Source: Patescibacteria group bacterium (GTDB lineage Bacteria; Patescibacteriota; Saccharimonadia; Saccharimonadales; 2-12-FULL-41-12). From it: DNA of 64,000 bases. The position numbers and the translations under genes are program-made. The stretch covers positions 315,004-379,003 of the forward strand of contig JBBTSC010000001.1 of assembly GCA_038064875.1 (NCBI GenBank). Direction: 5' to 3'. Position 1 is the stretch's first letter, and each line of letters starts with the position of its first letter. Shown piece by piece: positions 745-54,392 of the stretch. The notes beneath the pieces were generated by a model. The model was not told where the DNA came from. It ran no database searches and saw only the letters and a list, made by a program, of their open reading frames with translations.

Positions 745-2126
745 ACCTGGACGGCATTGATCCATTAGACGGCCGCTATTTTGACGCAGAAATCAGCAAA
801 CATCTATCAGAGAAAACTAGGATTATCTACCAAGCGAGGCTAGAAGGTGCACTTGCTAGCACTCTGGCTGATTGGGGAATTTGCGACAAAAGCCTAGCAG
901 ATGAAATCAACAAAGCAGCCAAAAACATAGACATAGAAAAAGTCCAGAAAGAAGAAGAGACGACTCGCCACGATATCAAAGCAATCGTCAACACGATCAA
1001 AGCAGAAATCAGTGACGAGGCAAAACCATACGTTCACTTTGGTGCTACGTCATACGACATCGTATCCAACGCCAGTGCTTTGCAGTTCAAAGACGCTATC
1101 CAAGAGTTAGTCTTGCCAAGGCTCGCTGAGCTTATAGAAACTTTGACTGGGCTGGCTGATACTTATAAATCCCAACCTCAAATAGGACGAACTCACGGTC
1201 AACACGCAGTACCAATAACTTTTGGCTTTGCTCTATCAGAATATGTATCTAGACTACGACTGAGCGGAGAAGCCCTACATGAACTTAGCCAGAACCTCCA
1301 TGGTAAATTCTCAGGAGCAGTCGGTGCCTACAACGCACTTAGTATATTCATAGACGATCCGATCAAATTCGAAAGAGATATCTTGAAAAAAATAGGTCTC
1401 CAACCATCAGAATCATCAACTCAAATAGTTCCTGCAGAAGTCATGATTCGCTTGCTTGACGAGCTTGCCATAACTAGCGGAATTATGGCCAACCTAGCCC
1501 ACGATATGCGGCACCTACAGAGGACTGAGATCAACGAAATCCGTGAACGATTCGAGGAAGGACAAACTGGCTCATCAACCATGGCCCACAAACGTAACCC
1601 ATGGAACTTCGAAAACGTGGTCAGTATGTCAAAGCAAGTTCTCGGACAAATAGTTAGCGCCAACCTCAATATTTCTAGCGAGCACCAACGGGATCTAACA
1701 GATTCTGCTTCTGCTAGATTCTACCCTATTGTATTAGCATCCGTTGCCTCTATGACAAAACGCCTCAACAATATAATGGGCAAAATCGAAGTTGATGAGC
1801 AGTCCATGCAGAAAAACCTAGAAATGACTGCCGGGGCAATAGCAGCCGAACCGCTATATCTATTGTTCGAAAAATACGGACACACATTGGCCCATGAGAA
1901 AGCTAAAAAACTAGCTCACACAGCCATAGACCTAGATCAACCTCTTGTAGATGTAATAACTGTTGATGAAGAGGCAAAAGCTTACTGGGATAAATTCAGC
2001 GAGAAGGAACAAGCCATCATCACGGCGCCTGAAAAAAACTACTTTGGTCTAGCTACCAAAAAGACTGAAATGATCGTAAAGAATTATAAAAAAAGTGAAT
2101 TCCGTAAACTGTATGGCAACACATAA
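741..2126 (+). CDS. purB: adenylosuccinate lyase
   Basis: 461 aa. Fumarate-lyase superfamily signature GSSTMAHKRNP and N-terminal DPLDGRY. Coupled to purC by a 4-nt overlap. Confidence 0.9.
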   Translation: MNLDGIDPLDGRYFDAEISKHLSEKTRIIYQARLEGALASTLADWGICDKSLADEINKAAKNIDIEKVQKEEETTRHDIKAIVNTIKAEISDEAKPYVHFGATSYDIVSNASALQFKDAIQELVLPRLAELIETLTGLADTYKSQPQIGRTHGQHAVPITFGFALSEYVSRLRLSGEALHELSQNLHGKFSGAVGAYNALSIFIDDPIKFERDILKKIGLQPSESSTQIVPAEVMIRLLDELAITSGIMANLAHDMRHLQRTEINEIRERFEEGQTGSSTMAHKRNPWNFENVVSMSKQVLGQIVSANLNISSEHQRDLTDSASARFYPIVLASVASMTKRLNNIMGKIEVDEQSMQKNLEMTAGAIAAEPLYLLFEKYGHTLAHEKAKKLAHTAIDLDQPLVDVITVDEEAKAYWDKFSEKEQAIITAPEKNYFGLATKKTEMIVKNYKKSEFRKLYGNT

Positions 2127-3972
2127 ACAAATTGCGATTTTAGATGCTGGTAGTCAATTTTGTGGGCAGATTGATAGAGTGGTCCACGAGCTGGATATTG
2201 ATTGCGATATTTTGCCTCTTGCCACTCCGTTATCAGATCTAGAAAAATACAAAGCTCTTATAATTTCTGGTGGGCCAGATAGTGTCAATGAGCTAGGATC
2301 AAAAGACTGTGATCCTGCAGTATTTACATCTGGTAAGCCAATACTTGGCATTTGTTACGGTATGCAACTTATTGCCAAACACCTTGGCGGATCTGTTGGT
2401 GACTCTGGCATGCGAGAAGATGGCAAGACTCAAACCACATTTTCCGACAACCCATTGTTTAAAAATATAGATTCAGATCAGCAAGTTTGGATGAGCCACG
2501 GCGACAGTGTCAATAAACTACCTGAAGGATTTGAAGTCATCGGAAAACACGGAGATTTTGTATCAGCTATAGCCAATGACCCAAAAAAGATTTATGGCCT
2601 GCAATTTCACCCAGAAGTACACAATACGCCAAAGGGTAAAGAAATTCTACGTAATTTTATATTCAATATTGCAGAACTCACCCCTGATTTTAAAGCAGAA
2701 GACCGCTTGCGAACAGTGCAGGAAGAAATCAAAAATATCATCGGAGACAAAGACGTTATCATGTATCTCAGCGGAGGAGTTGACTCCACCGTCATGGCAG
2801 TACTCATAGCCAAAACTATTGAAGACCCTCTCAAGATTCATGCCTACCACATAGACAATGGATTTATGCGCGCAGATGAGAGCAAAGCGGTAGAAAAAGT
2901 TCTCCATGACCTTGGCGTAGACGTCAATGTCATAAGCGCAGAAGACACGTTCCTAAATTCGACAACCACAATCGACGGCGTCAAGACAAAAAAACTATCT
3001 GAAGTTACAGACCCACAGCAAAAGCGCAAAATCATCGGTGATTGTTTTGCAACAATCCGCGAGGAAATAATCAAGGATAAAGAGTTGCCTTTAGATACCG
3101 TACTAGCTCAAGGAACTCTTCGGCCAGATATTATCGAGAGTGGATCAGATATGGCTGGTACGGGTCTAGATACGATCAAAACTCATCACAACGACACAGA
3201 TGGAATAAGAAAACTCCGCAAACAAGCACTAGTAGTAGAACCTCTGAAGTTCCTCTACAAAGACCAAGTACGAGTACTCGGACGTGACTTAGGATTACCA
3301 GACAGTATAGTAGACAGACATCCATTTCCAGGCCCAGGTTTGGCTATCAGAATCATCTGTTCTGACGGAACGATTAATAATCAATCTCAAATCAGCGAAG
3401 CCAACGCTAAGCTCCAAGACATCTTGAAAGATTCTGGAATAGAAGGCGATGTCTTACCTGTCCAAACTGTCGGTGTCCAAGGAGATGGAAGAACATACTC
3501 CCTGCTCGCCGTTATTCGGTGCGATAATCCTAATTGGCCTAAGCTAGCTGAATATACTCGCAAAATTACCAACGCAAAAATCGGTATTAACCGCGTCGCA
3601 TACGGATTCGTCAACAAACCACCACTTGCAGATCCTGTAGAAACTTTTCTAAACGACCAAACTACCACTGAGCTCAAAGAGGCTGACAAAATTGTCAGAG
3701 ATATCATCAACAACGATGGCTCAAAATTAGGAATTAGCCAGATGCCTGTCATATTGGTTCCTACTTCATTTGGTCAACCAGGCCAAAGATCTATCGCCAT
3801 CCGACCATTCATCACACCTGATTTCATGACAGGAGAAGCGGGCCTCCCAGGAATTGGAATGCCGAAAGAAACTATTAAAAATTGCGTTTCTCAGTTACTA
3901 GAACTAGACAATTTCAGCCAAGTATTGCTGGATTTAACAAGTAAACCACCAGGGACGACAGAATGGGAATGA
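2113..3972 (+). CDS. guaA: GMP synthase (glutamine-hydrolysing), long eukaryote-like form
   Basis: GATase-1 motifs GICYGMQ and QFHPEV, ATP-PPase P-loop SGGVDS, and IKTHHNDT, HPFPGPGLAIR and C-terminal DLTSKPPGTTEWE. Start placed at ATG 2113 (MATHKQIAILDAG) rather than the longest ORF at 2095. Confidence 0.9.
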   Translation: MATHKQIAILDAGSQFCGQIDRVVHELDIDCDILPLATPLSDLEKYKALIISGGPDSVNELGSKDCDPAVFTSGKPILGICYGMQLIAKHLGGSVGDSGMREDGKTQTTFSDNPLFKNIDSDQQVWMSHGDSVNKLPEGFEVIGKHGDFVSAIANDPKKIYGLQFHPEVHNTPKGKEILRNFIFNIAELTPDFKAEDRLRTVQEEIKNIIGDKDVIMYLSGGVDSTVMAVLIAKTIEDPLKIHAYHIDNGFMRADESKAVEKVLHDLGVDVNVISAEDTFLNSTTTIDGVKTKKLSEVTDPQQKRKIIGDCFATIREEIIKDKELPLDTVLAQGTLRPDIIESGSDMAGTGLDTIKTHHNDTDGIRKLRKQALVVEPLKFLYKDQVRVLGRDLGLPDSIVDRHPFPGPGLAIRIICSDGTINNQSQISEANAKLQDILKDSGIEGDVLPVQTVGVQGDGRTYSLLAVIRCDNPNWPKLAEYTRKITNAKIGINRVAYGFVNKPPLADPVETFLNDQTTTELKEADKIVRDIINNDGSKLGISQMPVILVPTSFGQPGQRSIAIRPFITPDFMTGEAGLPGIGMPKETIKNCVSQLLELDNFSQVLLDLTSKPPGTTEWE

Positions 3973-5189
3973 GCGGATCAGTAACAGTAGTTTTAGGGCT
4001 ACAGAGAGGAGACGAAGGCAAAGGTCGTTTTGTTGATGAGCTAGCCAGTAGCCACGACATAGTTGCTAGGTTCAACGGTGGCCCAAATGCTGGCCACACC
4101 GTAGTCCTACCAGACAACACCGAACTTGATTTGCACCTAGTGCCATCTGGAATTGCTCACTCAAATGTAGTCAATATTATTGGCAACGGATGCCTAATCG
4201 ACCCAATAAAACTATTAAAAGAATTCTCAGACATTGAAGCCAAAGACATCAAAGTAACTCCGGACAACCTAAAGATCAGTGCAAATGCTCACCTAATTTT
4301 GCCAAGTCATATTGAAGGCGACAAAGCTAGAGAAGTTACAGAGCAAGCTCAGGGCAGTACTAATTCTGGAATCGCCCAAGTATCTGCAGACAAATATTCA
4401 AGATCAGGAATAACTCTCAATCAAGCTCTTTCAAATCTTGATGCGCTTCTTGGAAAATCAAATCAAGAATATGTAGATGCTGTGAGACAATTAGAACAAT
4501 TTTCTGCAGACACAACTATATATATTAACCGGCAACTCACTGACGGTAAAAAAGTTCTTGCTGAAGGTGCCCAAGCCTTCTTGCTCGATATTGATCACGG
4601 AATGTATCCTTTTGTGACTTCATCAACCACGACAGTTGGTGGTGTCTGCACAGGGCTTGGTATTGCGCCAAAATATATCGACCAAGTTATTGGCGTGATC
4701 AAAGCTACTCAATCACACGTTGGTGGAGGTCCTTTCGTCACAGAAATTACAGATGAGAATCTACTTGGGCAACTTCGAGGCAAACAAACAGAAGTCGATG
4801 GAGAGTTCGGTACGACTACCGGACGAGCCAGACGAATGGGTCATCTTGATCTGCCACAAATCAAAAGAGCAATTATGGTAAATGGTATAACCCACTTAGC
4901 GATAACAAAGGTTGATTGTATCCCAAGATACGGTAATCAAATACAAATCTGTACCAGCTACAAAGACGTCGGTGATATTGCTCCAGTATCAGCTGATGCC
5001 TTAGATCAATCTACTCCTGAGTACGAAAATTTGCCATCATGGACAGAAGATATCTCAGTAATTGATGATTTTGATAGCCTGCCTGAAAATGCAAAAAACT
5101 ACATAAAATTTATAGAAGAAAAACTAACAACACCGATCTTCCGCATAGGCGTCGGCCCCAACCGAGACCAAGTCATCAAACTGTCTTAA
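3963..5189 (+). CDS. purA: adenylosuccinate synthetase
   Basis: GLQRGDEGKGRFVD, GGPNAGHT and GTTTGRARR motifs. An alternative start at ATG 3969 forms an ATGA overlap with the guaA stop. Confidence 0.9.
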   Translation: MGMSGSVTVVLGLQRGDEGKGRFVDELASSHDIVARFNGGPNAGHTVVLPDNTELDLHLVPSGIAHSNVVNIIGNGCLIDPIKLLKEFSDIEAKDIKVTPDNLKISANAHLILPSHIEGDKAREVTEQAQGSTNSGIAQVSADKYSRSGITLNQALSNLDALLGKSNQEYVDAVRQLEQFSADTTIYINRQLTDGKKVLAEGAQAFLLDIDHGMYPFVTSSTTTVGGVCTGLGIAPKYIDQVIGVIKATQSHVGGGPFVTEITDENLLGQLRGKQTEVDGEFGTTTGRARRMGHLDLPQIKRAIMVNGITHLAITKVDCIPRYGNQIQICTSYKDVGDIAPVSADALDQSTPEYENLPSWTEDISVIDDFDSLPENAKNYIKFIEEKLTTPIFRIGVGPNRDQVIKLS

Positions 5190-5203
5190 AGAAGATACAA
5201 ATA

Positions 5204-5232
5204 TTGACTTTTTGATTAATTTATGTTAATAT
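5204..5232 (+). promoter_or_regulatory. sigma-70-type promoter (TTGACT-17 nt-TAATAT)
   Basis: TTGACT at 5204-5209, a 17-nt spacer, then TAATAT at 5227-5232, directly after the purA stop and upstream of the 82-aa ORF. Confidence 0.5.
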
Positions 5233-5288
5233 ATTACAGTTTCGTTGAGGCAATTTTGCTTCCGAAGTACCTTGATAAGTAGCGTAGC

Positions 5289-5334
5289 GAGATGAGATAT
5301 AAGAACATAATTTTATGTTTTAATATCTCATCTC
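5289..5334 (+). promoter_or_regulatory. 46-nt near-perfect palindrome / leader hairpin
   Basis: gagatgagatat (5289-5300) pairs perfectly with atatctcatctc (5323-5334). An inner aacataa/ttatgtt pairing gives 20 of 23 positions complementary. It lies between the promoter and the RBS of the 82-aa ORF. Confidence 0.5.
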
Positions 5335-5371
5335 AGTATAACGAGTTGAAAACCAACAACAAGGAGAAAGC

Positions 5372-5620
5372 ATGTCTGGATCACAAAATCCTACAGCAGA
5401 AAACCAAAAACAAACTGCGTTTTTGGGGAAAGAAATCTTGGTTATGGCAAAGCCCTTCGGCGATGTCACATCAGCCGAGATTGATAAAGCTGAACAAGAA
5501 CTCGAGGCGATCTCGATTCCTGGCAATGCCAATTCGTTCGTCCCATGGGCCGACCCACTCATTCCTTTTGAATGCGAGTGTGGTGCAATCATCTATGCGG
5601 ACAGCGAACACGAACATTGA
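5372..5620 (+). CDS. small hypothetical protein (82 aa, FECECG motif)
   Basis: Strong SD AAGGAG 7 nt upstream of the ATG, its own promoter, and a GC-rich hairpin downstream. I recognise no family. Confidence 0.5.
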   Translation: MSGSQNPTAENQKQTAFLGKEILVMAKPFGDVTSAEIDKAEQELEAISIPGNANSFVPWADPLIPFECECGAIIYADSEHEH

Positions 5621-5636
5621 TCCAACCCCTGGATCA

Positions 5637-5677
5637 GCGGGCGCTTTAAGCGATTACATACGGCTTTTAGCGCCCGC
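5637..5677 (+). terminator. GC-rich hairpin downstream of the 82-aa ORF
   Basis: gcgggcgct (5637-5645) pairs with agcgcccgc (5669-5677) across a 23-nt loop. The U tract is weak (cttttacc), so this is not a textbook intrinsic terminator. Confidence 0.3.
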
Positions 5678-5806
5678 ACCGAACTTTTACCTTGTCAATC
5701 TTTGACTTTTTCAACACTTTTATACCAAACCTACTCTACCTATCTACCTTACTCTAGAATTGTGTGATTCTACTGAAGAGTTCAAAAGAACGAAAGTAAG
5801 AGTTTT

Positions 5807-6922
5807 TTAAGTTACGATTTGATCAAGCTTGTTTTGGTCTATTGCTGATTTGATTTCTATTGCTATTCTTTTGCCGTAGCTCATAGATTCGCCGTGCATG
5901 TATCCAGAATACGGAGTCGATGCTGTGCCTGGGCTACCAGGGATTCTCATACTGACATCAAAGATAAATATTTCCTCACTCGGTGGACCGGCAGTAACTG
6001 CACCTTGTAGGGCAAATGGCCCAACCATCCCTGGAGGATAAACACCCTCTACCGCTTCAACAAATTGTTCGCCGAGTTCATAAATTTTACTTAGTAATGA
6101 TTCTTTGACTGTAACTGCAATATGTCCGTTTTCAATGTATTTTGGCTGGACTTTTGCTAAAACTTTTCCTTGCTCTGAAGCCGTCAGACGGAGAAGTCCA
6201 TCGATATTTGTTTGCCTACGGATATCTGTACCCATAAGTTCAAGTCGTTTCTCAACGCCTGAGTAAAAAAAGTTTAAATTGATCATTGGACCCAAGACAA
6301 ATTCTTCAATCACTGGACTTTGGTCTGCAAAACTATTACCAAAACGTTTTTGCATTTCGTGCTCATACTCTCCTGCGTTATCCACCAAAAAGAAATCTCT
6401 CTCATAACTTCGTTCTTGCTCATTAGCCTTAACTATAACTAGACGATCAATATCTTTATAGTTTGCAAATTGCTTTGGTAATTTAATGCCGGCTTTTTCA
6501 AGCAAGAAATACTGGTTTTTTTCTTCATCACGTTCTTCTTTTTTGACCAAGATTCTATTGCCGAATATTGGCACCAAGAAAGTATTTTCTACCTGCTCAT
6601 AATCACAATAAACCCAGAAATATCGACTGTGTATAAAAATAGAGTTGCGAGATAACAACTCTTTTTGAACTACTTCGCTTGTCACATCTTTAAAACTATC
6701 AACTACTATAACATCGTCTACACATCCACGAACTCCGTCAGTCTTGTAATGTTTTTCGTAAACTTCGTGGCGTCCTTTTTGAGCAACAACAAGTGTACGA
6801 AAACCTTGGTCCTTAGCACCACGACAGACATCCAGCGCACTGTGACCACCAAGAGTCGCGATAGTAATTTCGCTTTTGTTATATTTGCTTAGTACTTCAG
6901 AGATATCTTGCTGAGTGATCAT
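5807..6922 (-). CDS. PurP-like ATP-grasp protein, divergent paralog
   Basis: N-terminal ITIATLGGHSALDVCRGAKDQGFRT matches the PurP N-domain signature. The C-terminal half (GPFALQG, FDVSMRIPGSPG, GKRIAIEIK) is a divergent version of PurP blocks. 4-nt overlap with the upstream purP. Confidence 0.7.
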   Translation of the reverse strand: MITQQDISEVLSKYNKSEITIATLGGHSALDVCRGAKDQGFRTLVVAQKGRHEVYEKHYKTDGVRGCVDDVIVVDSFKDVTSEVVQKELLSRNSIFIHSRYFWVYCDYEQVENTFLVPIFGNRILVKKEERDEEKNQYFLLEKAGIKLPKQFANYKDIDRLVIVKANEQERSYERDFFLVDNAGEYEHEMQKRFGNSFADQSPVIEEFVLGPMINLNFFYSGVEKRLELMGTDIRRQTNIDGLLRLTASEQGKVLAKVQPKYIENGHIAVTVKESLLSKIYELGEQFVEAVEGVYPPGMVGPFALQGAVTAGPPSEEIFIFDVSMRIPGSPGTASTPYSGYMHGESMSYGKRIAIEIKSAIDQNKLDQIVT

Positions 6923-7932
6923 CCAGTAACCTCGTCCAGTTTATCTTGCTCAATGGCGTTTTTAATTTCCCGAGCAATTCGCCGACCCGTGCTCATAGGC
7001 TCTGAATATCGAAGAGCTGTGTAAGGAGATCCGTCAACATATGGGTTAGATCCAGCTACGATTCGGGCAGAAATCTCAAAAACAAAATATTCCATGTCTG
7101 GCGTTACAACCATTTCCAAACAAAATGGACCAAACATTCCCTTTTCAGTTAGTTCTTTTGATTTGTCGACAACCTGCCGACCCATTCTGAAAAATTCTGC
7201 CAGCATGGACTCACGTGCGACAATCGGAATATTGCCAATGATGTTATATGAAGTTTGCAGATGAAGATCTAGCTGATCCTGCGCACTAATTCGGCCAATA
7301 GAGTCGACATTGGTCTCATATCTCTTATCCATACTCATGATTTCTAGCTCATCCGTAAGGGGTGAGTAGAAATAGTGAACATAGATAGGATTACCAATAA
7401 TATATTCTTGGATCATATACTTTACATCTTTGTGTTCTTGGATCTTGTCTTCAAATTCTGTTTTATTTTTAGCCAAAAAATAACCCTTGCCACCACCTGC
7501 ACCGTTGAACTTAATGATTGCTGGTCTGTCGATATCCTCCGCCTTATCAAAAATCTTCGGCATGGTGAGTCCAGAGTCTAGTAGCCATTGTCTTTGTTTA
7601 ACTCTACTTTCCTCGAGCCTGAGAACCTGTTTGTCGCCAAAATATAACATCTTATTTTGCTCCAGCTGATCGACTGAACACGCGGCAAATAGTGTCCCGT
7701 GTGGGATCAAAATAGCATTTTTATCAATAAGTTCTTGCTCTAGCCCATTGAAGTCTGGGTACTCATCTATACTGATTATCTCGTCAGCAACCCTGTAAGA
7801 TCTGTATGGCTCTTCGTATCCTTTTTTCACTACCGCGATCGTCTTGAACCCTTCGTCTTTCGCACCTTTGAGTATCTGTAGTGCGGAATGACTACCTAGA
7901 GTTGCAATACTGTAGTTTTTTGAATCTGCCAT
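6919..7932 (-). CDS. purP: 5-formaminoimidazole-4-carboxamide ribonucleotide (FAICAR) synthetase, archaeal type
   Basis: SIATLGSHSALQILKGAKDEGF, HYFYSPL, MDKRYETN, GNIPIVARES, GPFCLE, FEISARIVAGSN and MSTGRRIAREIK closely resemble the M. jannaschii PurP sequence as I recall it. Confidence 0.85.
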   Translation of the reverse strand: MADSKNYSIATLGSHSALQILKGAKDEGFKTIAVVKKGYEEPYRSYRVADEIISIDEYPDFNGLEQELIDKNAILIPHGTLFAACSVDQLEQNKMLYFGDKQVLRLEESRVKQRQWLLDSGLTMPKIFDKAEDIDRPAIIKFNGAGGGKGYFLAKNKTEFEDKIQEHKDVKYMIQEYIIGNPIYVHYFYSPLTDELEIMSMDKRYETNVDSIGRISAQDQLDLHLQTSYNIIGNIPIVARESMLAEFFRMGRQVVDKSKELTEKGMFGPFCLEMVVTPDMEYFVFEISARIVAGSNPYVDGSPYTALRYSEPMSTGRRIAREIKNAIEQDKLDEVTG

Positions 7933-7980: not shown

Positions 7981-8922
7981 CTATAGGGACTCTAAATATT
8001 TGCGAATATTGAGCGCAGAAGTCGCACCTTCGCCTATAGCACTAGCAATTTGCATAGTTGCGCCACTGCGTACATCCCCAGCGCAGAAGACTCCTGAAAT
8101 GTTTGTCTCTAGGTTTTCATCCGTCTTAATCAGGCCGATCTCGTCAAATTCTATACCAGTGTTTTTCAAAAACCCTGTATTTGGTAGTAGCCCTATAAAT
8201 ACAAAAACCCCGTTAGTATCAAATTCAACTTTTTTGCCAGATTTTTTATCTGTGCCAACCACTTTATTTACTTTTCCATCATCGCCACCCACTATCTTGT
8301 CAGTAGTTGTATTCATATGAACTTTAATCTGTGGAAATTTGTCAAGCTCCTTAATGAGCACATCGCTGGCTCGAAATTTGTCACCACGGACTAATAGGTC
8401 AATGTGAGTAGCAAATTTGGTCAAGAAAATTGCTTCTTGAACCGCAGAATTACCGCCACCGACTACAACGAGCTTCTTGTCTCTATAAAATGCGCCGTCA
8501 CAGGTAGCACAATAATGCACACCCTTGCCATAGAATTCAGCTTCACCTGGGATTCCAAGTTTATTGTAATCACTGCCAGTAGAAATAAGAACTGCCTTTG
8601 CTTTGATGTCTCCATCTGTAGTTGAAACTGTTTTGTATTTGCCTGAATCCTTAATATTGAGCACTTCACCAAATTCTATCTTTGCCCCAAAACGTACGGC
8701 TTGCTGTTCTAGTTGTTCTGCAAGCTCCAGGCCTGAAACACCTTTCGCAAAGCCAGGATAATTATCTACCCAGTCAGTTGTAGCCGCTAGTCCGCCAATC
8801 ACTCCCTTTTCATAGAGTACGGTTGATAAGTCTTCGCGGGTAGTATAAATAGCAGCTGAAAGCGAAGCTGGCCCAGCTCCAACCATCAATACATCCCAAA
8901 TCTTTTCTGTCGTCTCACTCAT
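7981..8922 (-). CDS. trxB: thioredoxin-disulfide reductase
   Basis: FAD motif VGAGPASLSAAIY, redox-active CATCDG, and NADPH motif VVGGGNSAVQEA. Confidence 0.92.
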   Translation of the reverse strand: MSETTEKIWDVLMVGAGPASLSAAIYTTREDLSTVLYEKGVIGGLAATTDWVDNYPGFAKGVSGLELAEQLEQQAVRFGAKIEFGEVLNIKDSGKYKTVSTTDGDIKAKAVLISTGSDYNKLGIPGEAEFYGKGVHYCATCDGAFYRDKKLVVVGGGNSAVQEAIFLTKFATHIDLLVRGDKFRASDVLIKELDKFPQIKVHMNTTTDKIVGGDDGKVNKVVGTDKKSGKKVEFDTNGVFVFIGLLPNTGFLKNTGIEFDEIGLIKTDENLETNISGVFCAGDVRSGATMQIASAIGEGATSALNIRKYLESL

Positions 8923-8947: not shown

Positions 8948-9070
8948 CTTAGCTGAATATGGCAGGGTGGTGCAAGGAAACTTCCGAGTACTGGAGTAAG
9001 ATGTACAAGAAGTACATCGCACGAAGCACGCAGGAGTTGACGAAGCAACATCCGCCATACTTCAGCTAAG
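8948..9070. repeat. 123-bp imperfect palindrome (long hairpin) in the nrdH-like/trxB gap
   Basis: Outer arm cttagctgaatatggc (8948-8963) pairs with gccatacttcagctaag (9054-9070) with a 1-nt bulge. gggtggtgc (8965-8973) pairs with gcaacatcc (9045-9053). The central hairpin gatgtac-aagaa-gtacatc (9000-9018) sits exactly at the symmetry centre. The element is GC-richer than its flanks. Confidence 0.5.
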
Positions 9071-9314
9071 CTACGGCAGGGGCTAGTTTGGCTAAATTAT
9101 ATCCTATAATTACTTCTTTTTGATCGTCATCTTTTGTTACAACCGTTACTGGTACTGCAAGTTGTCCGCTAATTTTATAAGCTTCCTCAGCACGTTCTGG
9201 ATTTTCGTCCAAATTCACTTCTTGGTAGCTTTTATCTTTTGCCGTTAGCCATTTCTTTACCATAACACAGTATGCACAGGTGTTAGTTGTATAAATTGTT
9301 ATATCTTTTGCCAT
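9066..9314 (-). CDS. glutaredoxin-like protein (NrdH/YruB-like, CAYC active site)
   Basis: 82 aa. ITIYTTNTCAYCVMVKKWL is a thioredoxin-fold CxxC motif. It sits upstream of trxB on the same strand. Confidence 0.75.
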   Translation of the reverse strand: MAKDITIYTTNTCAYCVMVKKWLTAKDKSYQEVNLDENPERAEEAYKISGQLAVPVTVVTKDDDQKEVIIGYNLAKLAPAVA

Positions 9315-9354: not shown

Positions 9355-9383
9355 ATTATATGTGGTGTATTTGAGATTGTCAA
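9355..9383 (-). promoter_or_regulatory. consensus sigma-70 promoter (TTGACA-17 nt-TATAAT) for nrdH-like/trxB
   Basis: On the minus strand, TTGACA occupies 9383-9378, followed by a 17-nt spacer and TATAAT at 9360-9355. Confidence 0.6.
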
Positions 9384-10729: not shown

Positions 10730-11947
10730 CTATAGATATTTTTTGGCGAAATATAGAAAGACAGCGTTTGTCCATCCAAAGCCCTCTTGAGGTGGATATA
10801 ACCCTTCTTTTGGCTGATCCATAGGCTCAACTACATTGTAGGACTCTCTAAAGATTTCGTACTTATTAAAATAATTTATATTTGTAGTAAGCCATTTCTT
10901 AGCAATATTTTTAGCCATAACTTTGTGCCCATAACGATCTAAACCGTTAACAACAATCCAGTGGAGTGGCGCCCAGCCATTTGGGTAGGCCCACTGATAA
11001 TTATCATGCAATGATCCGAATTCCTCCGAAGTTGCGCTAAGCCCTCCTCTTTGCATAAATTTGTCTAAATTATCCACGAGCCGATCAGCTTGCTCATCAG
11101 AAGCCAGGCCAGACCAAAGAGCATAATAGCTCGCCAGTGACCAAACATCTGATAGCTCGTCTTTCTGGTAATTATAGTCAAAGAAAAAGCCTTTCTCTGC
11201 GTCCCAGAGATAATATGTGACTTTAGCGGCACGATTTTTAGCTCGCATTTTCCAAACTTCTGCTTCTGTTTCGTCTCCAAGTAGTTCTGCTATTTTCGCA
11301 AAGTCCATTTCATACTTATACAGTAGGCAATTCAAATCAATAGGTATATAGCTGAGACATTCATCATTAAATCTAGTGGTCATATCCCAGCCACTCTCTG
11401 CCTCTGCAAGCTGATCAATGACATTTATATCGTAATAACGACTCAGTCCATGGAAAACATTTCGCCAATTTGGGTGGGATTCATTGGTCCAAACTTTTTC
11501 GTATTCGTCTTTGGCAACTTCTGAAACCTTTTTGAGCCACTTATTGTCTTTCTTTATTTGATATATATCTAAGATGTAACTTGTCAGAAAAGGTGGCTGT
11601 GACCTACCTGTCAAATAATATCTGTTGCCATTGGGCACAGAGCCAAACCTATCTGCAAGATAAATCAAATCATCGAGCATCCCTTCAGCGAGCTCTGTCC
11701 TGCCAGACTTTATAAGACCTTGTGCTGTAAAATAACTGTCCCAGTAATACATTTCCTCAAAAGCGAACCCAGAATCATTTTCTGTAGATGGGATAATGTA
11801 CGGATAAGGCAGACCTATTAGAGTATCTCTGTCTTCTGGAAAGAATCTAAGGAGATCATCCCACTTTGTATTAATATATTTCAATGCTCGATCAACATCG
11901 GCAACTTCTATATCTTTACTGGTACTTACTTTTTGTTTTAGAGGCAC
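10730..11947 (-). CDS. GH37 trehalase-like glycoside hydrolase (cytoplasmic, short form)
   Basis: FEEMYYWDSYF, RSQPPFL, GWDMTTRF and QWAYPNGWAPLHW resemble the trehalase signatures. GTG start 29 nt after the pheT stop. Confidence 0.7.
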   Translation of the reverse strand: MPLKQKVSTSKDIEVADVDRALKYINTKWDDLLRFFPEDRDTLIGLPYPYIIPSTENDSGFAFEEMYYWDSYFTAQGLIKSGRTELAEGMLDDLIYLADRFGSVPNGNRYYLTGRSQPPFLTSYILDIYQIKKDNKWLKKVSEVAKDEYEKVWTNESHPNWRNVFHGLSRYYDINVIDQLAEAESGWDMTTRFNDECLSYIPIDLNCLLYKYEMDFAKIAELLGDETEAEVWKMRAKNRAAKVTYYLWDAEKGFFFDYNYQKDELSDVWSLASYYALWSGLASDEQADRLVDNLDKFMQRGGLSATSEEFGSLHDNYQWAYPNGWAPLHWIVVNGLDRYGHKVMAKNIAKKWLTTNINYFNKYEIFRESYNVVEPMDQPKEGLYPPQEGFGWTNAVFLYFAKKYL

Positions 11948-26457: not shown

Positions 26458-27567
26458 TTAACTCTTTATCTTCTCCCAAGGGAATTCGGGGCGTCCGAAG
26501 TGGCCGTAGGTGGCAGTTTGTAGGTAGATTGGATTTTTTAGATCAAGTGTTTCTACAATATTTTTGACTGATGGATTAAGTAATTTGACTGCAAAAGCAC
26601 GGATTTTGTCTGTCGGAACTTTGTTCGTACCAAATGTATCTATAGAGAATTGAACAGGCTCTTTAGCTCCAATAAAATATGACAGTCCTATTTCTACTTC
26701 ATCCGCCAAGCCTTTCGCAACGATGTTTTTGGCAATATATCTGGCACCGTAGGCAGCAGATCTGTCGACTTTGCTAGGGTCTTTGCCACTAAATGCTCCA
26801 CCACCAACCCTAGCCAGCCCACCATAACCGTCAACTGCTATTTTGCGCCCGGTCAGTCCTGCGTCACTTTTGGGGCCTGGGGTATGCCAGACACCTGTGC
26901 CATTAACCACCAGGCCATTTTTAGGTACCGCGAAACCATAGTTTGCCAACACCGGTGTAATTACGTGCTCCAACAAGTCTTCTTGAATCTTGGCCAGCGA
27001 CAACCTTGGGTCATGGGGCACGGCTATAGTCAGATGATCTACCTTGACTGGCTTGTTGTCTATGTATTTGATCACGACCTGAGCTTTTCCGTCTGGGCGC
27101 AGATGAGGCAAAACGCCCGACTCACGTGCTGTGTCTATTGAATGGGTTAAGTCATGAGCTATAGCTACGGGTGTTGGCAAATACTTTTCTGTCTCGTTAG
27201 TTGCGTAGCCATAGATTATACCTTGGTCTCCAGCTCCAAAGTCGTCTACACCAACAGATATTTCTGGAGATTGAGCGTGTAGATAATTATCTATTTCTGA
27301 ATCCACATGAAATCCCCAAGATTTATCTGTATATCCTAACCGCTGGATTTGCTCGCGCGCTATAGCTACGAAATCTACCTTTGCAGTTGTATTGACCTCT
27401 CCTGCTAGTACCACTCTGTCTCTGGCTACTAGGGTCTCCACGGCTGTGCGACCATTTGGATCTTGGTGTAGCACCTCATCGACTATCGCGTCACTGATTT
27501 GATCTGCTATCTTGTCTGGATGCCCTGCGCAGACAGATTCACTGGTCTTTTTTGTTATTGTTGGCAT
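26458..27567 (-). CDS. metK: S-adenosylmethionine synthetase
   Basis: GHPDKIADQISD, GAGDQGIIYGYA and GGGAFSGKDPSKVDRSAAY motifs. Confidence 0.94.
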   Translation of the reverse strand: MPTITKKTSESVCAGHPDKIADQISDAIVDEVLHQDPNGRTAVETLVARDRVVLAGEVNTTAKVDFVAIAREQIQRLGYTDKSWGFHVDSEIDNYLHAQSPEISVGVDDFGAGDQGIIYGYATNETEKYLPTPVAIAHDLTHSIDTARESGVLPHLRPDGKAQVVIKYIDNKPVKVDHLTIAVPHDPRLSLAKIQEDLLEHVITPVLANYGFAVPKNGLVVNGTGVWHTPGPKSDAGLTGRKIAVDGYGGLARVGGGAFSGKDPSKVDRSAAYGARYIAKNIVAKGLADEVEIGLSYFIGAKEPVQFSIDTFGTNKVPTDKIRAFAVKLLNPSVKNIVETLDLKNPIYLQTATYGHFGRPEFPWEKIKS

Positions 27568-27710
27568 AAAAATATCCTTTCCCCTGAAACTGCGAGAAAG
27601 GATTTGAGATATTCATATCTTTCCTGCATAGCAGGGCTAGATTTAGCACCCAACTGAAAGGGTTGCTGGCAGGTCATTGGGCTAGGCCCCTCGCTACACT
27701 CTTGATATTA
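27568..27710 (-). promoter_or_regulatory. SAM-I (S-box) riboswitch plus expression platform in the metK leader
   Basis: The minus-strand RNA reads AUAUCAAGAG..GCGAGGGG.CUAGCCCAAUGAC..CAGCAACC...GGUGCUAAAUCUAGC...GAAAGAUAUGA, which matches conserved SAM-I blocks. It is followed by hairpin AUCCUUUC/GAAAGGAU plus U5, which covers the SD immediately before the ATG. Confidence 0.85.
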
Positions 27711-27753
27711 AATTGTTAAGTACCTATATTGTATCACCTCTTGGCAAGTTTTT

Positions 27754-27774: not shown

Positions 27775-27848
27775 TGGGGATTCGCCAAGTGGTAAGGCTC
27801 TGGTTTCTGGTACCAGCATCGGGGGTTCGAATCCCTCATCCCCAGCCA
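27775..27848 (+). tRNA. tRNA-Gln (anticodon CUG), CCA encoded
   Basis: Cloverleaf read by hand: acceptor UGGGGAU/AUCCCCA, anticodon stem CUGGU/ACCAG with loop UUCUGGU, T arm GGGGG-UUCGAAU-CCCUC, discriminator G plus CCA. Close to E. coli tRNA-Gln as I recall it. Confidence 0.93.
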
Positions 27849-40071: not shown

Positions 40072-41439
40072 CTAGCCAATACAGACTGATTTGATATTAA
40101 CAAATTCTTTGATGCCGTAATGAGAGAGCTCGCGACCATAACCTGATTTCTTGACTCCACCAAATGGTACTTTGGGATCAGATTTTATATGTGAATTTAT
40201 AAAGACACATCCTGTATCTAATCTACTAGCAATTTCTTCAGCTTTTTGTTGATCTGCCGTAAACACGCTACCGCCAAGACCATAGATGCTTGAATTAGCT
40301 AACTCTATAGCTTGGTCAACACTATCGACAGCAATTATCGGCATAACTGGACCAAAGAGTTCCTCGGCCATAGCTGGCATATCTGGGTTCACATCAACAA
40401 GTACCGTAGGTTCATAATAATACCCCGTTTCACCCCAAGACTTACCTCCTGCGATGACCTTTGCTCCTGCTTCAACTGACCGCTCAACCTGGGCTTTAAT
40501 CTCATCAAACATCTTCTTGTTTGCCATTGGCCCTACTGTAGTAGCCGAATCTAGCGGGTCGCCAATTTTTAACTTTGCCACCTCGAACTTAACTTTTTCT
40601 ACAAACTGATCAAAAACTGGTTTCTCTATGATAAAACGTTTGGCAGCGATGCAACTCTGACCTGCGTTAAATTGCATCCTAGCTGAAACTGCAACCTGCG
40701 CTGCTTTGTCCAAATCAGCATCTGCCAGCACGATAAACGGATCGCTTCCACCAAGTTCCATAACTGACTTTTTAATTTCTTGACCAGCAGTTCCTGCCAC
40801 CGCCATCCCAGCTCGTTCACTACCAGTTAATGTTACTGCTTTGACCCTATCATCTCTTATGATCGATTCAACTTTTTGTGTCTCGATAGGTAAATTGTAA
40901 AATACACCCTCTGGCAATCCAGCTTCTAAAAACACATCCTCGATGGCCTGAGCAGAAAGCGCGACATTTGACGCATGTTTTAATAGCCCAACATTTCCTG
41001 CCATCAAAGCAGGCGCTGCAAAACGAAAGACTTGCCAAAAAGGAAAGTTCCAAGGCATAACAGCTAGCACAATTCCTATTGGGTCAAATCGTGCATAAGC
41101 TTTACCAGAGTCAACATCTATATGTTCAGGTGCAAGGAATGTGCTCGCATTTTGTGCATAATATTCACAAACTCCAGCACATTTTTCTACCTCAGCCTCA
41201 GCAGCAACAAGAGTCTTGCCCATCTCATCTGTAATAATTTTAGCTAGCTCAGATTTTTTTCTACGGAGTACCTCGGCTGTTTTATTTAAGTATTTTGCTC
41301 TCTCATCAAACCCAAGCCTTGACCACTGCTCGTAGGCACTTTGGCTCTTTGTAATACGGTCCTTTATAGATGCATCATCAAGTACATCAATTTCTGAAAA
41401 AACTTCGCCGTTTTTTGGATTTATTGATTGGAGCGCCAT
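40072..41439 (-). CDS. NAD(P)-dependent succinate-semialdehyde dehydrogenase (YneI/Sad-type ALDH)
   Basis: VMPWNFPFWQVFRFAAPALMAGNVGLLKHASNV, ELGGSDP and NAGQSCIAAKR closely match the E. coli YneI blocks as I recall them. Confidence 0.85.
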   Translation of the reverse strand: MALQSINPKNGEVFSEIDVLDDASIKDRITKSQSAYEQWSRLGFDERAKYLNKTAEVLRRKKSELAKIITDEMGKTLVAAEAEVEKCAGVCEYYAQNASTFLAPEHIDVDSGKAYARFDPIGIVLAVMPWNFPFWQVFRFAAPALMAGNVGLLKHASNVALSAQAIEDVFLEAGLPEGVFYNLPIETQKVESIIRDDRVKAVTLTGSERAGMAVAGTAGQEIKKSVMELGGSDPFIVLADADLDKAAQVAVSARMQFNAGQSCIAAKRFIIEKPVFDQFVEKVKFEVAKLKIGDPLDSATTVGPMANKKMFDEIKAQVERSVEAGAKVIAGGKSWGETGYYYEPTVLVDVNPDMPAMAEELFGPVMPIIAVDSVDQAIELANSSIYGLGGSVFTADQQKAEEIASRLDTGCVFINSHIKSDPKVPFGGVKKSGYGRELSHYGIKEFVNIKSVCIG

Positions 41440-41465
41440 ATATTCCCCCGACCTCTATGGTCTGT

Positions 41466-43106
41466 TTAAAGTTTACTTTCAACTCTGGCTTTGAGCCCAG
41501 AACCGAATTCTTCATTATTCATACTGTAGTCAATAGACAAATCTATAAGATGCACACCCTTTTGGTTAATGCATTTCTCTATAAGTGGCTTGAATTCTTT
41601 TGCTGATTCTACTTTGTGACCTTTTGCACCAAAACTATCTGCCAACTTAACAAAGTCTGGATTGCCAAAGTCCAAGCCAAATTTTGGCAAGTTCATGCCC
41701 TCTTGTTTCCATTTGATCATCCCGTAACCATTGTCATTGAGTATGATTACCACCATATCCAGCTTCAATCTAACTGCTGTCTCAAGATCTGCCAAATTCA
41801 TCATAAATCCACCATCTCCAGCAACGACAACCACCTTATTCTGTGGATTCAAAAGCTTGGTCGCGATCCCTACTGGTAACCCTGCACCCATGGTCGCAAG
41901 GGCGTTGTCGAGTAACACGCTATTTTGCTCATAAGCTGGATAATTTCTTGCTACCCAAATCTTGTACATACCATTATCTAGTGACAAAAACGCGTCTCTA
42001 GGCAGAGATTCACGTAGCTCATAAACAAATCTCTTTGGATGTATCGGAAAGCGCGGGTCATCAACATTACTGTTGATATCTTCAATCATATTTTTCTTTA
42101 TAGCAAAGTAATGCCTGAAATCCCACTTTGGCAAATCATCAAGTTGCTCAGATATTGCTCTTAGTGCTTGGGCAATATCACCTATAACCTCAATATCTGG
42201 CCTGTAAACATCGTCCATGTCAGCCGGATAGAAATTGATGTGGATAATTTTTTGGCTATTTTTAGCGAGAACGGGTGGCTTTTCGGTAATATCATGTCCA
42301 ATCATAATGATTAGATCAGCCGACAAAATAGCATGGTGCATAAAATCATGACTAGTAAGAGCGGTGGTGCCAAGGTACAAACGAGAACTTTCATCCTCTA
42401 CGCCTTTACCCATCTGAGAGGTTATAAAAGGAATACCTGTAAGTTCCAAGAACTTATGGAGCTCACCCCGCACCCATTTTCTGTTGGCTCCGGCTGCTAT
42501 CACTACCACTGGCATTTTTGCATTTTTGATAGCCAGCACTGCAGACTCTACTGTTGACTGATCAGCATCTGGCCGACGAACCTCGTGCCAAGGGATAGGA
42601 AGCGCATCAGTCTCTTCTTCTGCTATATCTTCTGGAAGTTCAATATGCACAGCACCCGGACGTTCATCTTCTGCAGTTCTGACTGCCTGATAAACGGTGG
42701 TTGCTATTCGGTCACCACTTACAATAGTTTCACTCATCTTAGTAATTGGTTTCATCATCCCGACAACATCTATAATTTGAAATTTACCTTGTTTGCTTTT
42801 TTTGATAGGTTTTTGGCCTGTTATAACAAGCAATGGCATTCCACCCAGCTGAGCATATGCTACCCCTGTAACCAAATTTGTCGCACCTGGCCCCAAAGTT
42901 GACAAGGCAACACCCACTCTCCCTGTCAGCCTACCAACCGTTGCAGCCATAAAAACGGCCGCTTGCTCATCTCTTGTTGTGATGAGCCTAATTGTTGAAC
43001 TACGAATTGCTTCTAAAAATGCTAAATTTTCCTCACCTGGTACTCCAAAAATATATTCTACTCCTGAAGCTTCTAAGCTTTCTACAAATAGTTCGGCTGC
43101 TCGCAA
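41466..43106 (-). CDS. thiamine-diphosphate enzyme of the acetolactate synthase/2-oxoacid decarboxylase family
   Basis: 546 aa. N-terminal GVEYIFGVPGEEN and TPP motif GDGGFMMN...NDNGYG. TTG start with SD GGAGGG 8 nt upstream. 26 nt upstream of the SSADH gene. Confidence 0.8.
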   Translation of the reverse strand: MRAAELFVESLEASGVEYIFGVPGEENLAFLEAIRSSTIRLITTRDEQAAVFMAATVGRLTGRVGVALSTLGPGATNLVTGVAYAQLGGMPLLVITGQKPIKKSKQGKFQIIDVVGMMKPITKMSETIVSGDRIATTVYQAVRTAEDERPGAVHIELPEDIAEEETDALPIPWHEVRRPDADQSTVESAVLAIKNAKMPVVVIAAGANRKWVRGELHKFLELTGIPFITSQMGKGVEDESSRLYLGTTALTSHDFMHHAILSADLIIMIGHDITEKPPVLAKNSQKIIHINFYPADMDDVYRPDIEVIGDIAQALRAISEQLDDLPKWDFRHYFAIKKNMIEDINSNVDDPRFPIHPKRFVYELRESLPRDAFLSLDNGMYKIWVARNYPAYEQNSVLLDNALATMGAGLPVGIATKLLNPQNKVVVVAGDGGFMMNLADLETAVRLKLDMVVIILNDNGYGMIKWKQEGMNLPKFGLDFGNPDFVKLADSFGAKGHKVESAKEFKPLIEKCINQKGVHLIDLSIDYSMNNEEFGSGLKARVESKL

Positions 43107-48904: not shown

Positions 48905-48961
48905 TTATTGTTCCTTTTTGTTTTATTTATTTCACGAAATATTATATCATAAAGGTTAAGC

Positions 48962-53786: not shown

Positions 53787-54392
53787 GTGTTTCAATTAGA
53801 GGGATTGCCCTACGACTACAAAGATCTAGAGCCATATATCGACGCTGAGACCATGGAAATACATTATGGCAAGCACCACCAAACCTACGTGGATAAGCTC
53901 AACAGTGCCCTTAAAGATTTTCCAGAATTAGCTGACAAAAAAATTGAAGAGCTGGTCAGTTCTATCAGTGCTCTCCCTGAATCAGTCCAGACAGCGGTAA
54001 GAAATAACGGTGGTGGTCACTATAACCACTCTCTTTTTTGGAATTTCATGACTCCCGATCAAAGCAAAAAGAATATCTCGTCTGAAATTAGTGATGCTAT
54101 TAATAACACATTTGGTAGTATTGAGGACTTTAAAGGCAAGTTTGAAGAGAGTGCAATACTCAGATTTGGATCTGGATGGGTGTGGCTCGTGAGCAAAGAT
54201 GGAAAGCTAGAGATCATAAGCACCGCGAACCAAGACACGCCACTTGAGCTTGGATATAGCCCCCTACTTGGACTTGATGTTTGGGAGCATGCGTATTATC
54301 TAAAATATAAGAATCGAAGACCTGAATACATACAAGCTTGGTGGAATGTAGTTAACTGGAGCGAAGTCGCTCAGAAATTATCCCAGAACTAA
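53787..54392 (+). CDS. sodA: Fe/Mn superoxide dismutase
   Basis: [22 protein letters not shown] and [21 protein letters not shown] start with SD AGGAGGG. Confidence 0.93.

Follow-up and report, generated by a model that had tools for sequence, protein, structure and literature searches.

The purine locus of a groundwater Saccharibacteria bacterium raises a question: what does a pair of archaeal-type PurP genes do in a bacterium, and do its members work separately or as one enzyme? The locus lies in a 64,000-nucleotide stretch of contig JBBTSC010000001.1 (assembly GCA_038064875.1, positions 315,004 to 379,003 of the forward strand), which we call the window; the DNA that was read extended from 9.2 kb before the window to 9 kb beyond it, about 83 kb of genome. 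The two genes, referred to here as copy 1 and copy 2, are a bacterial member of the known PurP II/III pair, and the protein families themselves are known. The PurP II + III cassette is very probably dedicated to the end of purine synthesis that converts 5-aminoimidazole-4-carboxamide ribonucleotide (AICAR) to inosine monophosphate (IMP). With moderate confidence, we favor the overall picture that PurP II and PurP III act together at the AICAR step and that the cassette is shared with DPANN archaea through inter-domain transfer.

Two overlapping PurP-family genes

Both genes are on the minus strand. Copy 1 (positions 6919–7932) encodes 337 residues and copy 2 (5807–6922) encodes 371. The TGA stop of the former and the ATG start of the latter share the four nucleotides of an ATGA overlap (6919–6922, minus strand; junction letters GG-ATGA-TC, read directly from the sequence), and a GAGG Shine-Dalgarno-like motif stands 7 nt upstream of the copy 2 ATG. 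An earlier note on this DNA had described two minus-strand open reading frames (ORFs) of these lengths with a 4-nt overlap and had quoted a series of motifs; the coordinates, the lengths and the junction were read as described, and all of the motifs are present in the translations. IATLGSHSAL/IATLGGHSAL and GAKDEGF/GAKDQGF occur in both proteins; HYFYSPL, MDKRYETN, GNIPIVARES, GPFCLE and MSTGRRIAREIK occur in copy 1, and NLNFFYSGVEKRLELMGTDIRRQTN and FDVSMRIPGSPG in copy 2.

The note had also taken the pair for PurP-family ATP-grasp proteins of archaeal affinity and had suggested a check with models of the N- and C-terminal PurP domains. Pfam, NCBIfam and Protein Data Bank (PDB) matches all support the family assignment. 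Both proteins contain DUF1246 (PF06849) followed by DUF1297 (PF06973), each at full length and with scores far above gathering (E = 3e-37 and 1e-70 for copy 1; E = 4e-39 and 2e-57 for copy 2). The NCBIfam models of formate-phosphoribosylaminoimidazolecarboxamide ligase were matched with E = 8e-120 by copy 1 and E = 1e-85 by copy 2, and the PurP structures of the PDB with E = 2e-102 and E = 1e-71, respectively. Judged by these scores, the PurP-family match of both ORFs is far beyond chance. The two proteins are 34% identical to one another.

Assignment to PurP II and PurP III

To which PurPs do the two proteins belong? Archaeal PurPs fall into four groups: group I, which includes Methanocaldococcus jannaschii MJ0136 (MjPurP); group II, or cluster Ib, with Pyrococcus furiosus PF1517; group III, or cluster II, with P. 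furiosus PF0421; and group IV, which is specific to Thermococcaceae (PMC6486802, PMC3261824). The archaea that bear PurP II all also carry PurP III (PMC6486802, PMC3261824). Ligand contacts were taken from the same two studies (Brown 2011, PMC3261824; Cruz 2019, PMC6486802), and contact residues are numbered as in M. jannaschii PurP. His27 and Arg314, the formyl contacts, are 100% conserved in archaeal PurPs (Brown 2011, PMC3261824). Position 258 is Asn, the AICAR carboxamide contact, in every cluster I protein and His in every one of cluster II; the cluster I P-loop reads (K/R)GG(K/R)G, and the cluster II loop at 161–165 is two residues longer and nearly free of Gly (PMC3261824). His258 and the longer, Gly-poor loop are perfectly correlated in cluster II (Brown 2011, PMC3261824).

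An exhaustive search with copy 2 supplied 71 full-length representatives, in which these features were typed. The dichotomy was strict: N258 goes with GA(K/R)GG(K/R)G(Y/F)F (hereafter N-type) and H258 with xxAxxxxER(A/G)FF (H-type). In neighbor-joining (NJ) trees, which had 100 bootstraps and modest internal support, the H/N split was recovered in 100/100. Related loci were collected by a search of one genome per prokaryotic species seeded with a 13-sequence H-type alignment, and all locus counts given below rest on the best 80 of 514 copy 2 relatives.

Copy 1 is of the N258 type (PurP II, cluster Ib). It has Asn234 at Mj position 258 and a Gly-rich loop of normal length, GAGGGKGYF, and in the NJ tree it groups with PF1517, P0289 and P0376, with MjPurP outside. 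It aligns end to end with PF1517 (PDB 2r84–2r87) at about 52% identity (E = 2e-102); entry 2r84 is its best PDB match (346 bits, over copy 1 residues 8–335). The two proteins are of one length class (337 vs. 334 residues), have Asn258, His27, Arg314 and the Gly-rich loop in common, and are each partnered by a PurP III-type gene. They differ in host, that of copy 1 being a mesophilic bacterium; in the loop, where GGGKG of copy 1 has Gly for the first basic residue of (K/R)GG(K/R)G, a variant common to several orthologs from the Candidate Phyla Radiation (CPR); and at Ser94, which is Thr in copy 1.

Copy 2 is of the H258 type (PurP III, cluster II), an assignment made from the published diagnostics and from its clustering with H258-type representatives. 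His267 occupies Mj position 258, and this His is at least 95% conserved in the H-type orthologs of the 80 loci. The loop, NEQERSYERDFF, has no Gly and is two residues longer than GARGGRGYF in the HMMER alignment, and copy 2 lies inside the H-type clade with 100% bootstrap support. It shares His258 and the longer, Gly-poor loop with archaeal PurP III proteins such as PF0421 and, like them, accompanies a PurP II-type gene: copy 2 adjoins copy 1, and both types are present in 64 of the 80 related loci. It differs from them in its bacterial host and in the Tyr that copy 2 and its nearest relatives have at the Ser94 position. The formyl contacts His27/Arg314 correspond to H15/R290 in copy 1 and H27/R326 in copy 2; over the 80 loci, their conservation is 95% or more in either type.

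The PDB copy that was searched contained no PurP III structure. An AlphaFold2 model of copy 2 (predicted local distance difference test score 83.6; predicted template modeling score 0.84) has the PurP fold. In Foldseek, its top matches were all nine PurP chains (query-normalized template modeling (TM) scores 0.67–0.83), followed by other ATP-grasp enzymes; the best was MjPurP 2r7l (TM 0.83), and PF1517 and Thermococcus kodakarensis PurP came next. The segment of lowest confidence, residues 170–174, is the remodeled loop. MjPurP (MJ0136; EC 6.3.4.23; PDB 2r7k–2r7n) is also the best solved-structure match of copy 2 by sequence (E = 1e-71), and it shares fold, domain architecture and formyl-contact residues with both copies. 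It nevertheless differs in being a single-copy, stand-alone and experimentally active enzyme of another paralog group, group I, to which neither window protein belongs. PurT and PurK resemble the pair as ATP-grasp ligases that activate formate or bicarbonate as acyl phosphate, and PurK structures are among the next-best fold matches to copy 2 after the PurP structures; however, their identity is 10–16%, their substrates are others, and they do not have the DUF1246/DUF1297 signatures.

Because of the signatures, the 100/100 H/N split and a mutual identity of only 34%, the window pair is, on sequence criteria, PurP II + PurP III and not a local duplication of one gene. The earlier note had proposed the latter: a tandem duplication in this bacterium, with one copy a M. 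jannaschii-like enzyme of folate-independent IMP synthesis and the other recently diverged. The genes are indeed adjacent, on the same strand, both of the PurP family and 34% identical, and no purH is found in the window. However, each copy resembles the archaeal proteins of its own paralog group more than it does its neighbor, the N-then-H pair recurs in 64 of the 80 CPR and DPANN loci, and both partners evolve at the same rate; the folate-independence part is further countered by the purN-like, folD and glyA genes that adjoin the cassette in relatives. We regard this explanation as very improbable. What the note called a duplicated copy is instead one of two ancient paralog groups, the pair having been inherited and transferred as a unit. 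The resemblance to Methanocaldococcus PurP that it recognized holds at the level of the family, although copy 1 is closer to PF1517 and neither copy falls in group I. The phylogeny that it called for did place the copies with archaeal PurP types in the NJ tree, but as two separate paralog groups. It was right that copy 2 is divergent, and the divergence reaches a substrate-contact residue (His258).

Labels for copy 1-type and copy 2-type proteins had already been given by the Prokaryotic Genome Annotation Pipeline (PGAP) and IMG. PGAP names the former as EC 6.3.4.23 ligase and the latter as "DUF1297 domain-containing protein"; the first name is over-confident and the second under-informative.

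A conserved two-gene cassette

Is the arrangement peculiar to this genome? In 64 of the 80 loci, both full-length genes are adjacent and on the same strand, and N-type is upstream of H-type in 63 of these, the single reversed order being that of locus L085. Twenty-two of the 27 bacterial loci with both genes have a spacing of at most 10 nt, and one has more than 200 nt; for the 37 archaeal loci, the corresponding numbers are 13 and 13, with small genes inserted in most of the latter. Loci with an H-type gene only are mostly end-of-contig cases or are labeled Thermoplasmatota.

The partners also change in step. Mean pairwise identity is 62.5% among N-type and 64.8% among H-type proteins, and the two partners are under equal purifying constraint. 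Their distance matrices are correlated (Mantel r = 0.75; 0 of 999 permutations reach this r), and by this measure the partners co-evolve.

Almost all recurrent neighbors of the cassette in the 80 loci are purine genes: guaA (36), purA (17), purF (15), purC (13), purB (13), purL (12), purE (11), purN-like (10), purM (10), purD (10) and purQ (7), along with folD (6). A DPANN operon (L033) reads glyA-like/folD-purM-purL-purQ-purE-purC-purB-N-H-guaA, with the cassette in the purH slot. Likeness to PurH is one of position: the cassette sits between purB and guaA, where the enzyme of steps 9 and 10 is expected. The fold and chemistry of PurH are unrelated, and PurH is folate-dependent.

The company of the cassette bears on its role. 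The same chemistry could serve salvage, the cassette recycling AICAR (ZMP) from histidine biosynthesis or from a host cell to IMP. An episymbiont whose de novo pathway is incomplete would be well served by such a role; purA, guaA and pyrF are the only purine neighbors in many Saccharibacteria loci (L012, L013, L015, L017), the 83 kb read contain no purF, purD or purN/T, and Korarchaeum has the pair and purB without the de novo pathway (PMC3261824). Against it, purL-purM-purE and purC-purB are immediately adjacent here, which argues for de novo synthesis with the remaining genes probably elsewhere, and the DPANN operons hold nearly the whole pathway. We therefore consider a salvage role decidedly unlikely.

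Three ORFs that recur beside DPANN cassettes (u219, u133 and u252) were considered as candidates for an IMP cyclohydrolase and rejected as not enzyme-like: they encode a Pro-rich protein that contains a coiled coil, a small protein of the coiled-coil kind and a surface protein with a signal peptide. No homologs of the three were found in the window. Separately, purine operons of Woesearchaeota (L027, L029, L036 and L076; e.g., L027:5529–6170) contain inserted genes of HAD-family hydrolases (HAD_2; weak NT5C-like matches), either between purE and purC or between the two PurP genes.

Occurrence in bacteria and archaea

A survey of steps 9 and 10 in 1,403 complete genomes stated that PurP is confined to archaea (Cruz 2019, PMC6486802). 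How, then, did the pair come to stand in this genome? One explanation is artifactual: archaeal DNA joined to a bacterial contig by chimeric assembly or binning. The closest relatives outside Saccharibacteria are indeed labeled archaeal. However, the identical arrangement is found on seven contigs from independent assemblies, bacterial genes flank the pair on both sides, composition is uniform across the window, and the same cassette is present in dozens of other Saccharibacteria loci. A chimera was rejected; its probability is close to nil. The seven independently assembled contigs with an identical copy 1 include a 765,891-bp contig of an NCBI metagenome-assembled genome and Hainich groundwater 0.2-µm assemblies. 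Bacterial markers on the contig are PheS/PheT, a sigma-70-family protein, NAD-dependent LigA, MurC/Ddl and an S-adenosylmethionine (SAM) riboswitch before metK. The nearest species representative is Candidatus Saccharibacteria RIFCSPHIGHO2_12_FULL_41_12, at 85–87% identity for both proteins. The window organism is a groundwater Saccharibacteria (CPR/Patescibacteria) bacterium.

The relatives of copy 2 at 54–65% identity mix CPR bacteria (Saccharibacteria/Saccharimonadales, Parcubacteria, Gracilibacteria, Peregrinibacteria and Peribacteria) with DPANN archaea (Woesearchaeota, Nanoarchaeota and Naiadarchaeum); third-party annotation bins with doubtful "Methanosarcinales" and "Thermoplasmatales" labels are also among them. 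As judged from these matches, the PurP II + III pair is common in Saccharibacteria and other CPR lineages. Our literature searches on purP with Patescibacteria or Candidate Phyla Radiation, and on K06863, found no paper linking PurP to CPR/Patescibacteria.

The window proteins are 60% and 62% identical to Woesearchaeota orthologs and 62% and 65% identical to those of other Saccharibacteria. Bacterial monophyly was recovered in 0 of 100 bootstraps in both the N and the H trees, a clade of Saccharibacteria and Woesearchaeota-A had 86% support in the N tree, and the CPR + DPANN set was separated from other archaeal H-type representatives at 99%. Because the bacterial sequences are never monophyletic and are interleaved with those of DPANN, inter-domain transfer is indicated: the trees are most simply read as showing more than one move of the cassette between DPANN archaea and CPR bacteria, and the window pair was probably exchanged with DPANN archaea.

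Some cassette records that group with the Saccharibacteria type carry non-CPR or large-genome labels: L024 (OY969576.1, a 1.9-Mb chromosome), L025 (a 557-kb contig labeled Nevskiaceae) and L021 (a 5.5-kb contig labeled Chlamydiae). These three may be misclassified bins or may reflect a wider bacterial range of the cassette.

A possible mode of action

What might the two proteins do together? Six residues, H27, K156, R228, E265, S266 and R314, are invariant in N-type and H-type alike. H-type differs systematically from N-type by G159E and G162R in the P-loop and by N258H, E310D, Y229R, E230Q and H210N, and it has many type-specific invariant residues in the N-terminal domain. For the archaeal proteins, a hetero-oligomer of trimers of each type has been proposed from the weak hexamer interface of PF1517 and from the constant joint occurrence of groups II and III (Cruz 2019, PMC6486802).

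By analogy, the N-type and H-type proteins would form a hetero-oligomer, most likely of trimers of each type, and the pair would formylate AICAR to FAICAR with formate and ATP via formyl phosphate, as M. jannaschii PurP does. In the N-type partner, the canonical P-loop would bind the nucleotide and Asn258 would contact the AICAR carboxamide. The H-type protein retains the ATP-grasp Lys, His27/Arg314 for the formyl group and Ser266 for the 5'-phosphate; its lid loop is remodeled (ER motif), its residue 258 is His, and Asp replaces Glu310. It would either provide a second active site of altered character, which may act on FAICAR, or be an obligatory activating subunit. The IMP produced would feed the products of the adjacent purA and guaA. 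The P. furiosus PurP II (PF1517) and PurP III (PF0421) homologs are inactive alone (PMC3261824, PMC6486802); joint action of the partners would fit this inactivity, the translational coupling and the co-evolution. That the pair is an obligate hetero-oligomeric FAICAR synthetase seems to us an evenly balanced proposition.

The two proteins may instead be independent enzymes, copy 1 being a formate-dependent FAICAR synthetase by itself and copy 2 catalyzing another step, e.g., FAICAR to IMP; indeed, Brown et al. speculated that H-type is an IMP cyclohydrolase (PMC3261824). Several observations accord with this division of labor. There is no purH, purO or PurH2-like gene in the 83 kb or in the DPANN purB-N-H-guaA operons, and the co-operonic ORFs of the DPANN loci are not enzyme-like. 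H-type alters the AICAR-carboxamide contact (N258H) and the nucleotide loop, yet it is as conserved as N-type; one locus (L037) pairs the cassette with an AICAR formyltransferase (AICARFT)-only protein; and presence of the pair partially matches absence of purO/purH2 (Brown 2011, PMC3261824). However, the N-type homolog PF1517 has no FAICAR synthetase activity alone (PMC3261824), and the phyletic pattern is imperfect (Brown 2011, PMC3261824): Archaeoglobus has the pair and PurJ, and Thermococcaceae have the pair and PurO (PMC6486802). H-type also retains Lys156 and, with D for E310, an acidic residue at the metal site; a hydrolytic cyclase would have no need of either. Moreover, we know of no precedent for the ATP-grasp fold as a cyclohydrolase. 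Independent action is, in our view, unlikely.

A variant of the joint-action reading goes further: PurP II/III would be an obligate two-component enzyme that takes AICAR all the way to IMP, N-type formylating it and H-type binding FAICAR and promoting ring closure. We view this extension as doubtful.

Relation to PurH and folate, and points against joint action

Does the cassette replace PurH, and does it free the cell from folate? The earlier note had seen no purH or purO in the window, and its observation stands: tblastn with Escherichia coli PurH found no PurH-like sequence, and Pfam scans no PurO/IMP-cyclohydrolase family, in the window and about 9 kb on each side. None of purH, purO, purN, purT, purF, purD and purK is in the roughly 83 kb read. 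From this the note had moved to folate-independent IMP synthesis, which is not established: the P. furiosus homologs are inactive alone (PMC3261824, PMC6486802); purN-like, folD, glyA and MTHFS (5-formyl-tetrahydrofolate cyclo-ligase) genes adjoin the cassette in relatives; PurH stands near it in five loci and an AICARFT-only gene in L037; and only about 83 kb of this genome was inspected.

Specifically, PurN-like genes, for which PurN is the best NCBIfam match, below cut-off, abut the cassette in four Saccharibacteria-type loci (L018, L020, L024 and L028), and folD and glyA are co-operonic with it in DPANN loci. The cassette thus coexists with folate metabolism and, in some other loci, with PurH itself. 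Its coexistence with PurH mirrors the purP II/purP III/purH combination known in ten archaea (PMC6486802).

The folate genes also prompt the thought that the formyl donor is something other than free formate, e.g., formyl-folate or another activated one-carbon unit, an idea raised for PurP II by Zhang et al. (reported in PMC6486802). It would explain why the P. furiosus proteins were inactive in a formate assay, and glyA, folD, purN and 5-formyl-tetrahydrofolate cyclo-ligase genes recur beside the cassette or the H-type gene. Nevertheless, the formyl contacts His27 and Arg314 are invariant in both types, and folate genes in purine operons are accounted for by PurN alone. ATP-grasp chemistry, moreover, activates a carboxylate as an acyl phosphate. 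A non-formate donor is highly improbable on these grounds.

A number of observations weigh against the reading that PurP II and PurP III act jointly at the AICAR step in a cassette acquired across domains. As to activity, group I MJ0136 is the sole enzyme with demonstrated FAICAR synthetase activity (PMC6486802, PMC3261824), and a PurP II/III heteromer is speculation. Both window proteins miss the cut-offs of the NCBIfam equivalog models (NF009778–NF009783): the best scores are 400 vs. 580 bits for copy 1 and 288 vs. 556 bits for copy 2. As to the role of the cassette, five Gracilibacteria/Peregrinibacteria loci (L052, L058, L064, L075 and L081; e.g., L058:6192–7724) have, 2–4 kb from it, a gene for full-length bacterial PurH with about 50% identity to the E. 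coli protein; two routes of AICAR formylation would thus stand side by side in these loci. In L037 (Saccharimonadales), an AICARFT-only protein (PF01808; 12138–13214, minus strand), with no IMP cyclohydrolase domain, is encoded between the cassette and purL, a combination that would need a separate cyclohydrolase. Because of these six loci, the cassette is not simply a PurH replacement.

As to the unity of the pair, the partners are set apart in 13 of the 37 archaeal loci, mostly by small genes that intervene, and seven Thermoplasmatota-labeled loci (L048, L065, L066, L070, L072, L084 and L087), arranged as thrS (with an archaeal editing domain), H-type and MTHFS, have no N-type gene within 10 kb. 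As to transfer, the grouping of Saccharibacteria with Woesearchaeota-A had only 38% support in the H tree, and Saccharibacteria monophyly 41–42%. The taxon labels of most "archaeal" loci are those deposited, the Thermoplasmatota label being corroborated by the archaeal editing domain of ThrRS; no domain-diagnostic markers were seen among the flanking genes of the sampled "archaeal" loci (Lon, PLD, PfkB, GyrB, SHMT and similar).

Surroundings of the pair

The pair converges on a block of purine genes on the plus strand, as the earlier note had pointed out. This block comprises purC (SAICAR synthetase), whose 3' part occupies positions 28–744 and whose full 313-residue gene starts to the left of the window (Pfam SAICAR_synt and NCBIfam matches); purB (adenylosuccinate lyase; 741–2126; Lyase_1 and ASL_C; TIGR00928, E = 1e-94); guaA (GMP synthase; 2113–3972; GATase and GMP_synt_C; NF000848, 459 bits, above cut-off); and purA (adenylosuccinate synthetase; 3963–5189; PF00709, E = 1e-131). 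In the larger locus, purL-purM-purE is divergent from purC-purB-guaA-purA, and the latter is convergent with copy 2-copy 1-trxB-grx.

GuaA has 619 residues on the source contig, about 100 more than the GuaA of related DPANN loci (511–512 residues) and than the 512-position NCBIfam model; its GMP_synt_C domain matches in two separated stretches, which suggests a C-terminal insertion. PurL, encoded to the left of the window (L003:3553–7353), is a fused, large protein of 1266 residues, and related DPANN operons have split purL + purQ. Because of this difference, the purine genes around the shared cassette have different origins.

The 617-bp convergent spacer between purA and copy 2 (5190–5806) contains only non-conserved ORFs and a terminator-like hairpin (5426–5404, minus strand). 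An 82-residue ORF in it (5372–5620) is matched by no homolog in the related loci and is unlikely to be a gene. Rfam gave no match in the spacer, and a permissive Rfam scan around the locus yielded no credible ZTP or purine riboswitch.

Upstream of copy 1, on the same strand and 48 nt away, is trxB (thioredoxin reductase; 7981–8922, minus strand; TIGR01292, E = 2e-100), which is probably co-transcribed with it. It is followed upstream by a glutaredoxin-like gene, grx (9066–9314, minus strand; PF00462), the first gene of a putative grx-trxB-purP(II)-purP(III) unit. A sigma-70 promoter-like site, TTGACA-17-TATAAT (9355–9383, minus strand; 12/12 consensus match), stands upstream of grx, so that a grx-trxB-purP-purP transcript with the PurP pair at its distal end is plausible; the promoter is a consensus match only, and the total of promoter-like sites in the region is not above shuffled expectation. 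Only in the closest relative (L008) does a member of the trxB cluster (c43) immediately precede the cassette; in L026 and L041, the members are non-adjacent. By this count, trxB is not a conserved partner of the cassette.

Elsewhere in the window, a SAM-I riboswitch (27612–27711, minus strand; 52 bits, above gathering) is directly upstream of metK (26458–27567, minus strand), and tRNA-Gln(CTG) is at 27775–27848 (plus strand). Oxygen- and stress-related genes lie at 40072–43106, 47759–50620, 53787–54392 and 10730–11947; they encode an Fe/Mn superoxide dismutase, an NDH-2-like flavoprotein, a D-lactate dehydrogenase-like FAD-linked oxidase, a thiamine pyrophosphate enzyme and an aldehyde dehydrogenase, a trehalase and an aquaporin. 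As an expectation only, this set seems large for a CPR genome.

Significance

The finding adds a core biosynthetic module to the genes shared by CPR and DPANN ultra-small episymbionts. It bears on the activity of PurP II and PurP III and on the identity of the IMP cyclohydrolase in many archaea. So far, no comparative argument that the partners work as a unit is stronger than the strictly ordered, overlapping N-then-H cassette of minimal genomes, and, unlike the proteins of hyperthermophiles, a pair from a mesophilic bacterium is testable in E. coli. If the two-component route from AICAR to IMP were true, the pair would be the "missing" IMP cyclohydrolase of Crenarchaeota, Pyrococcus, DPANN archaea and these CPR bacteria, and the mesophilic bacterial cassette would be the first version directly testable by complementation of E. 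coli purH.

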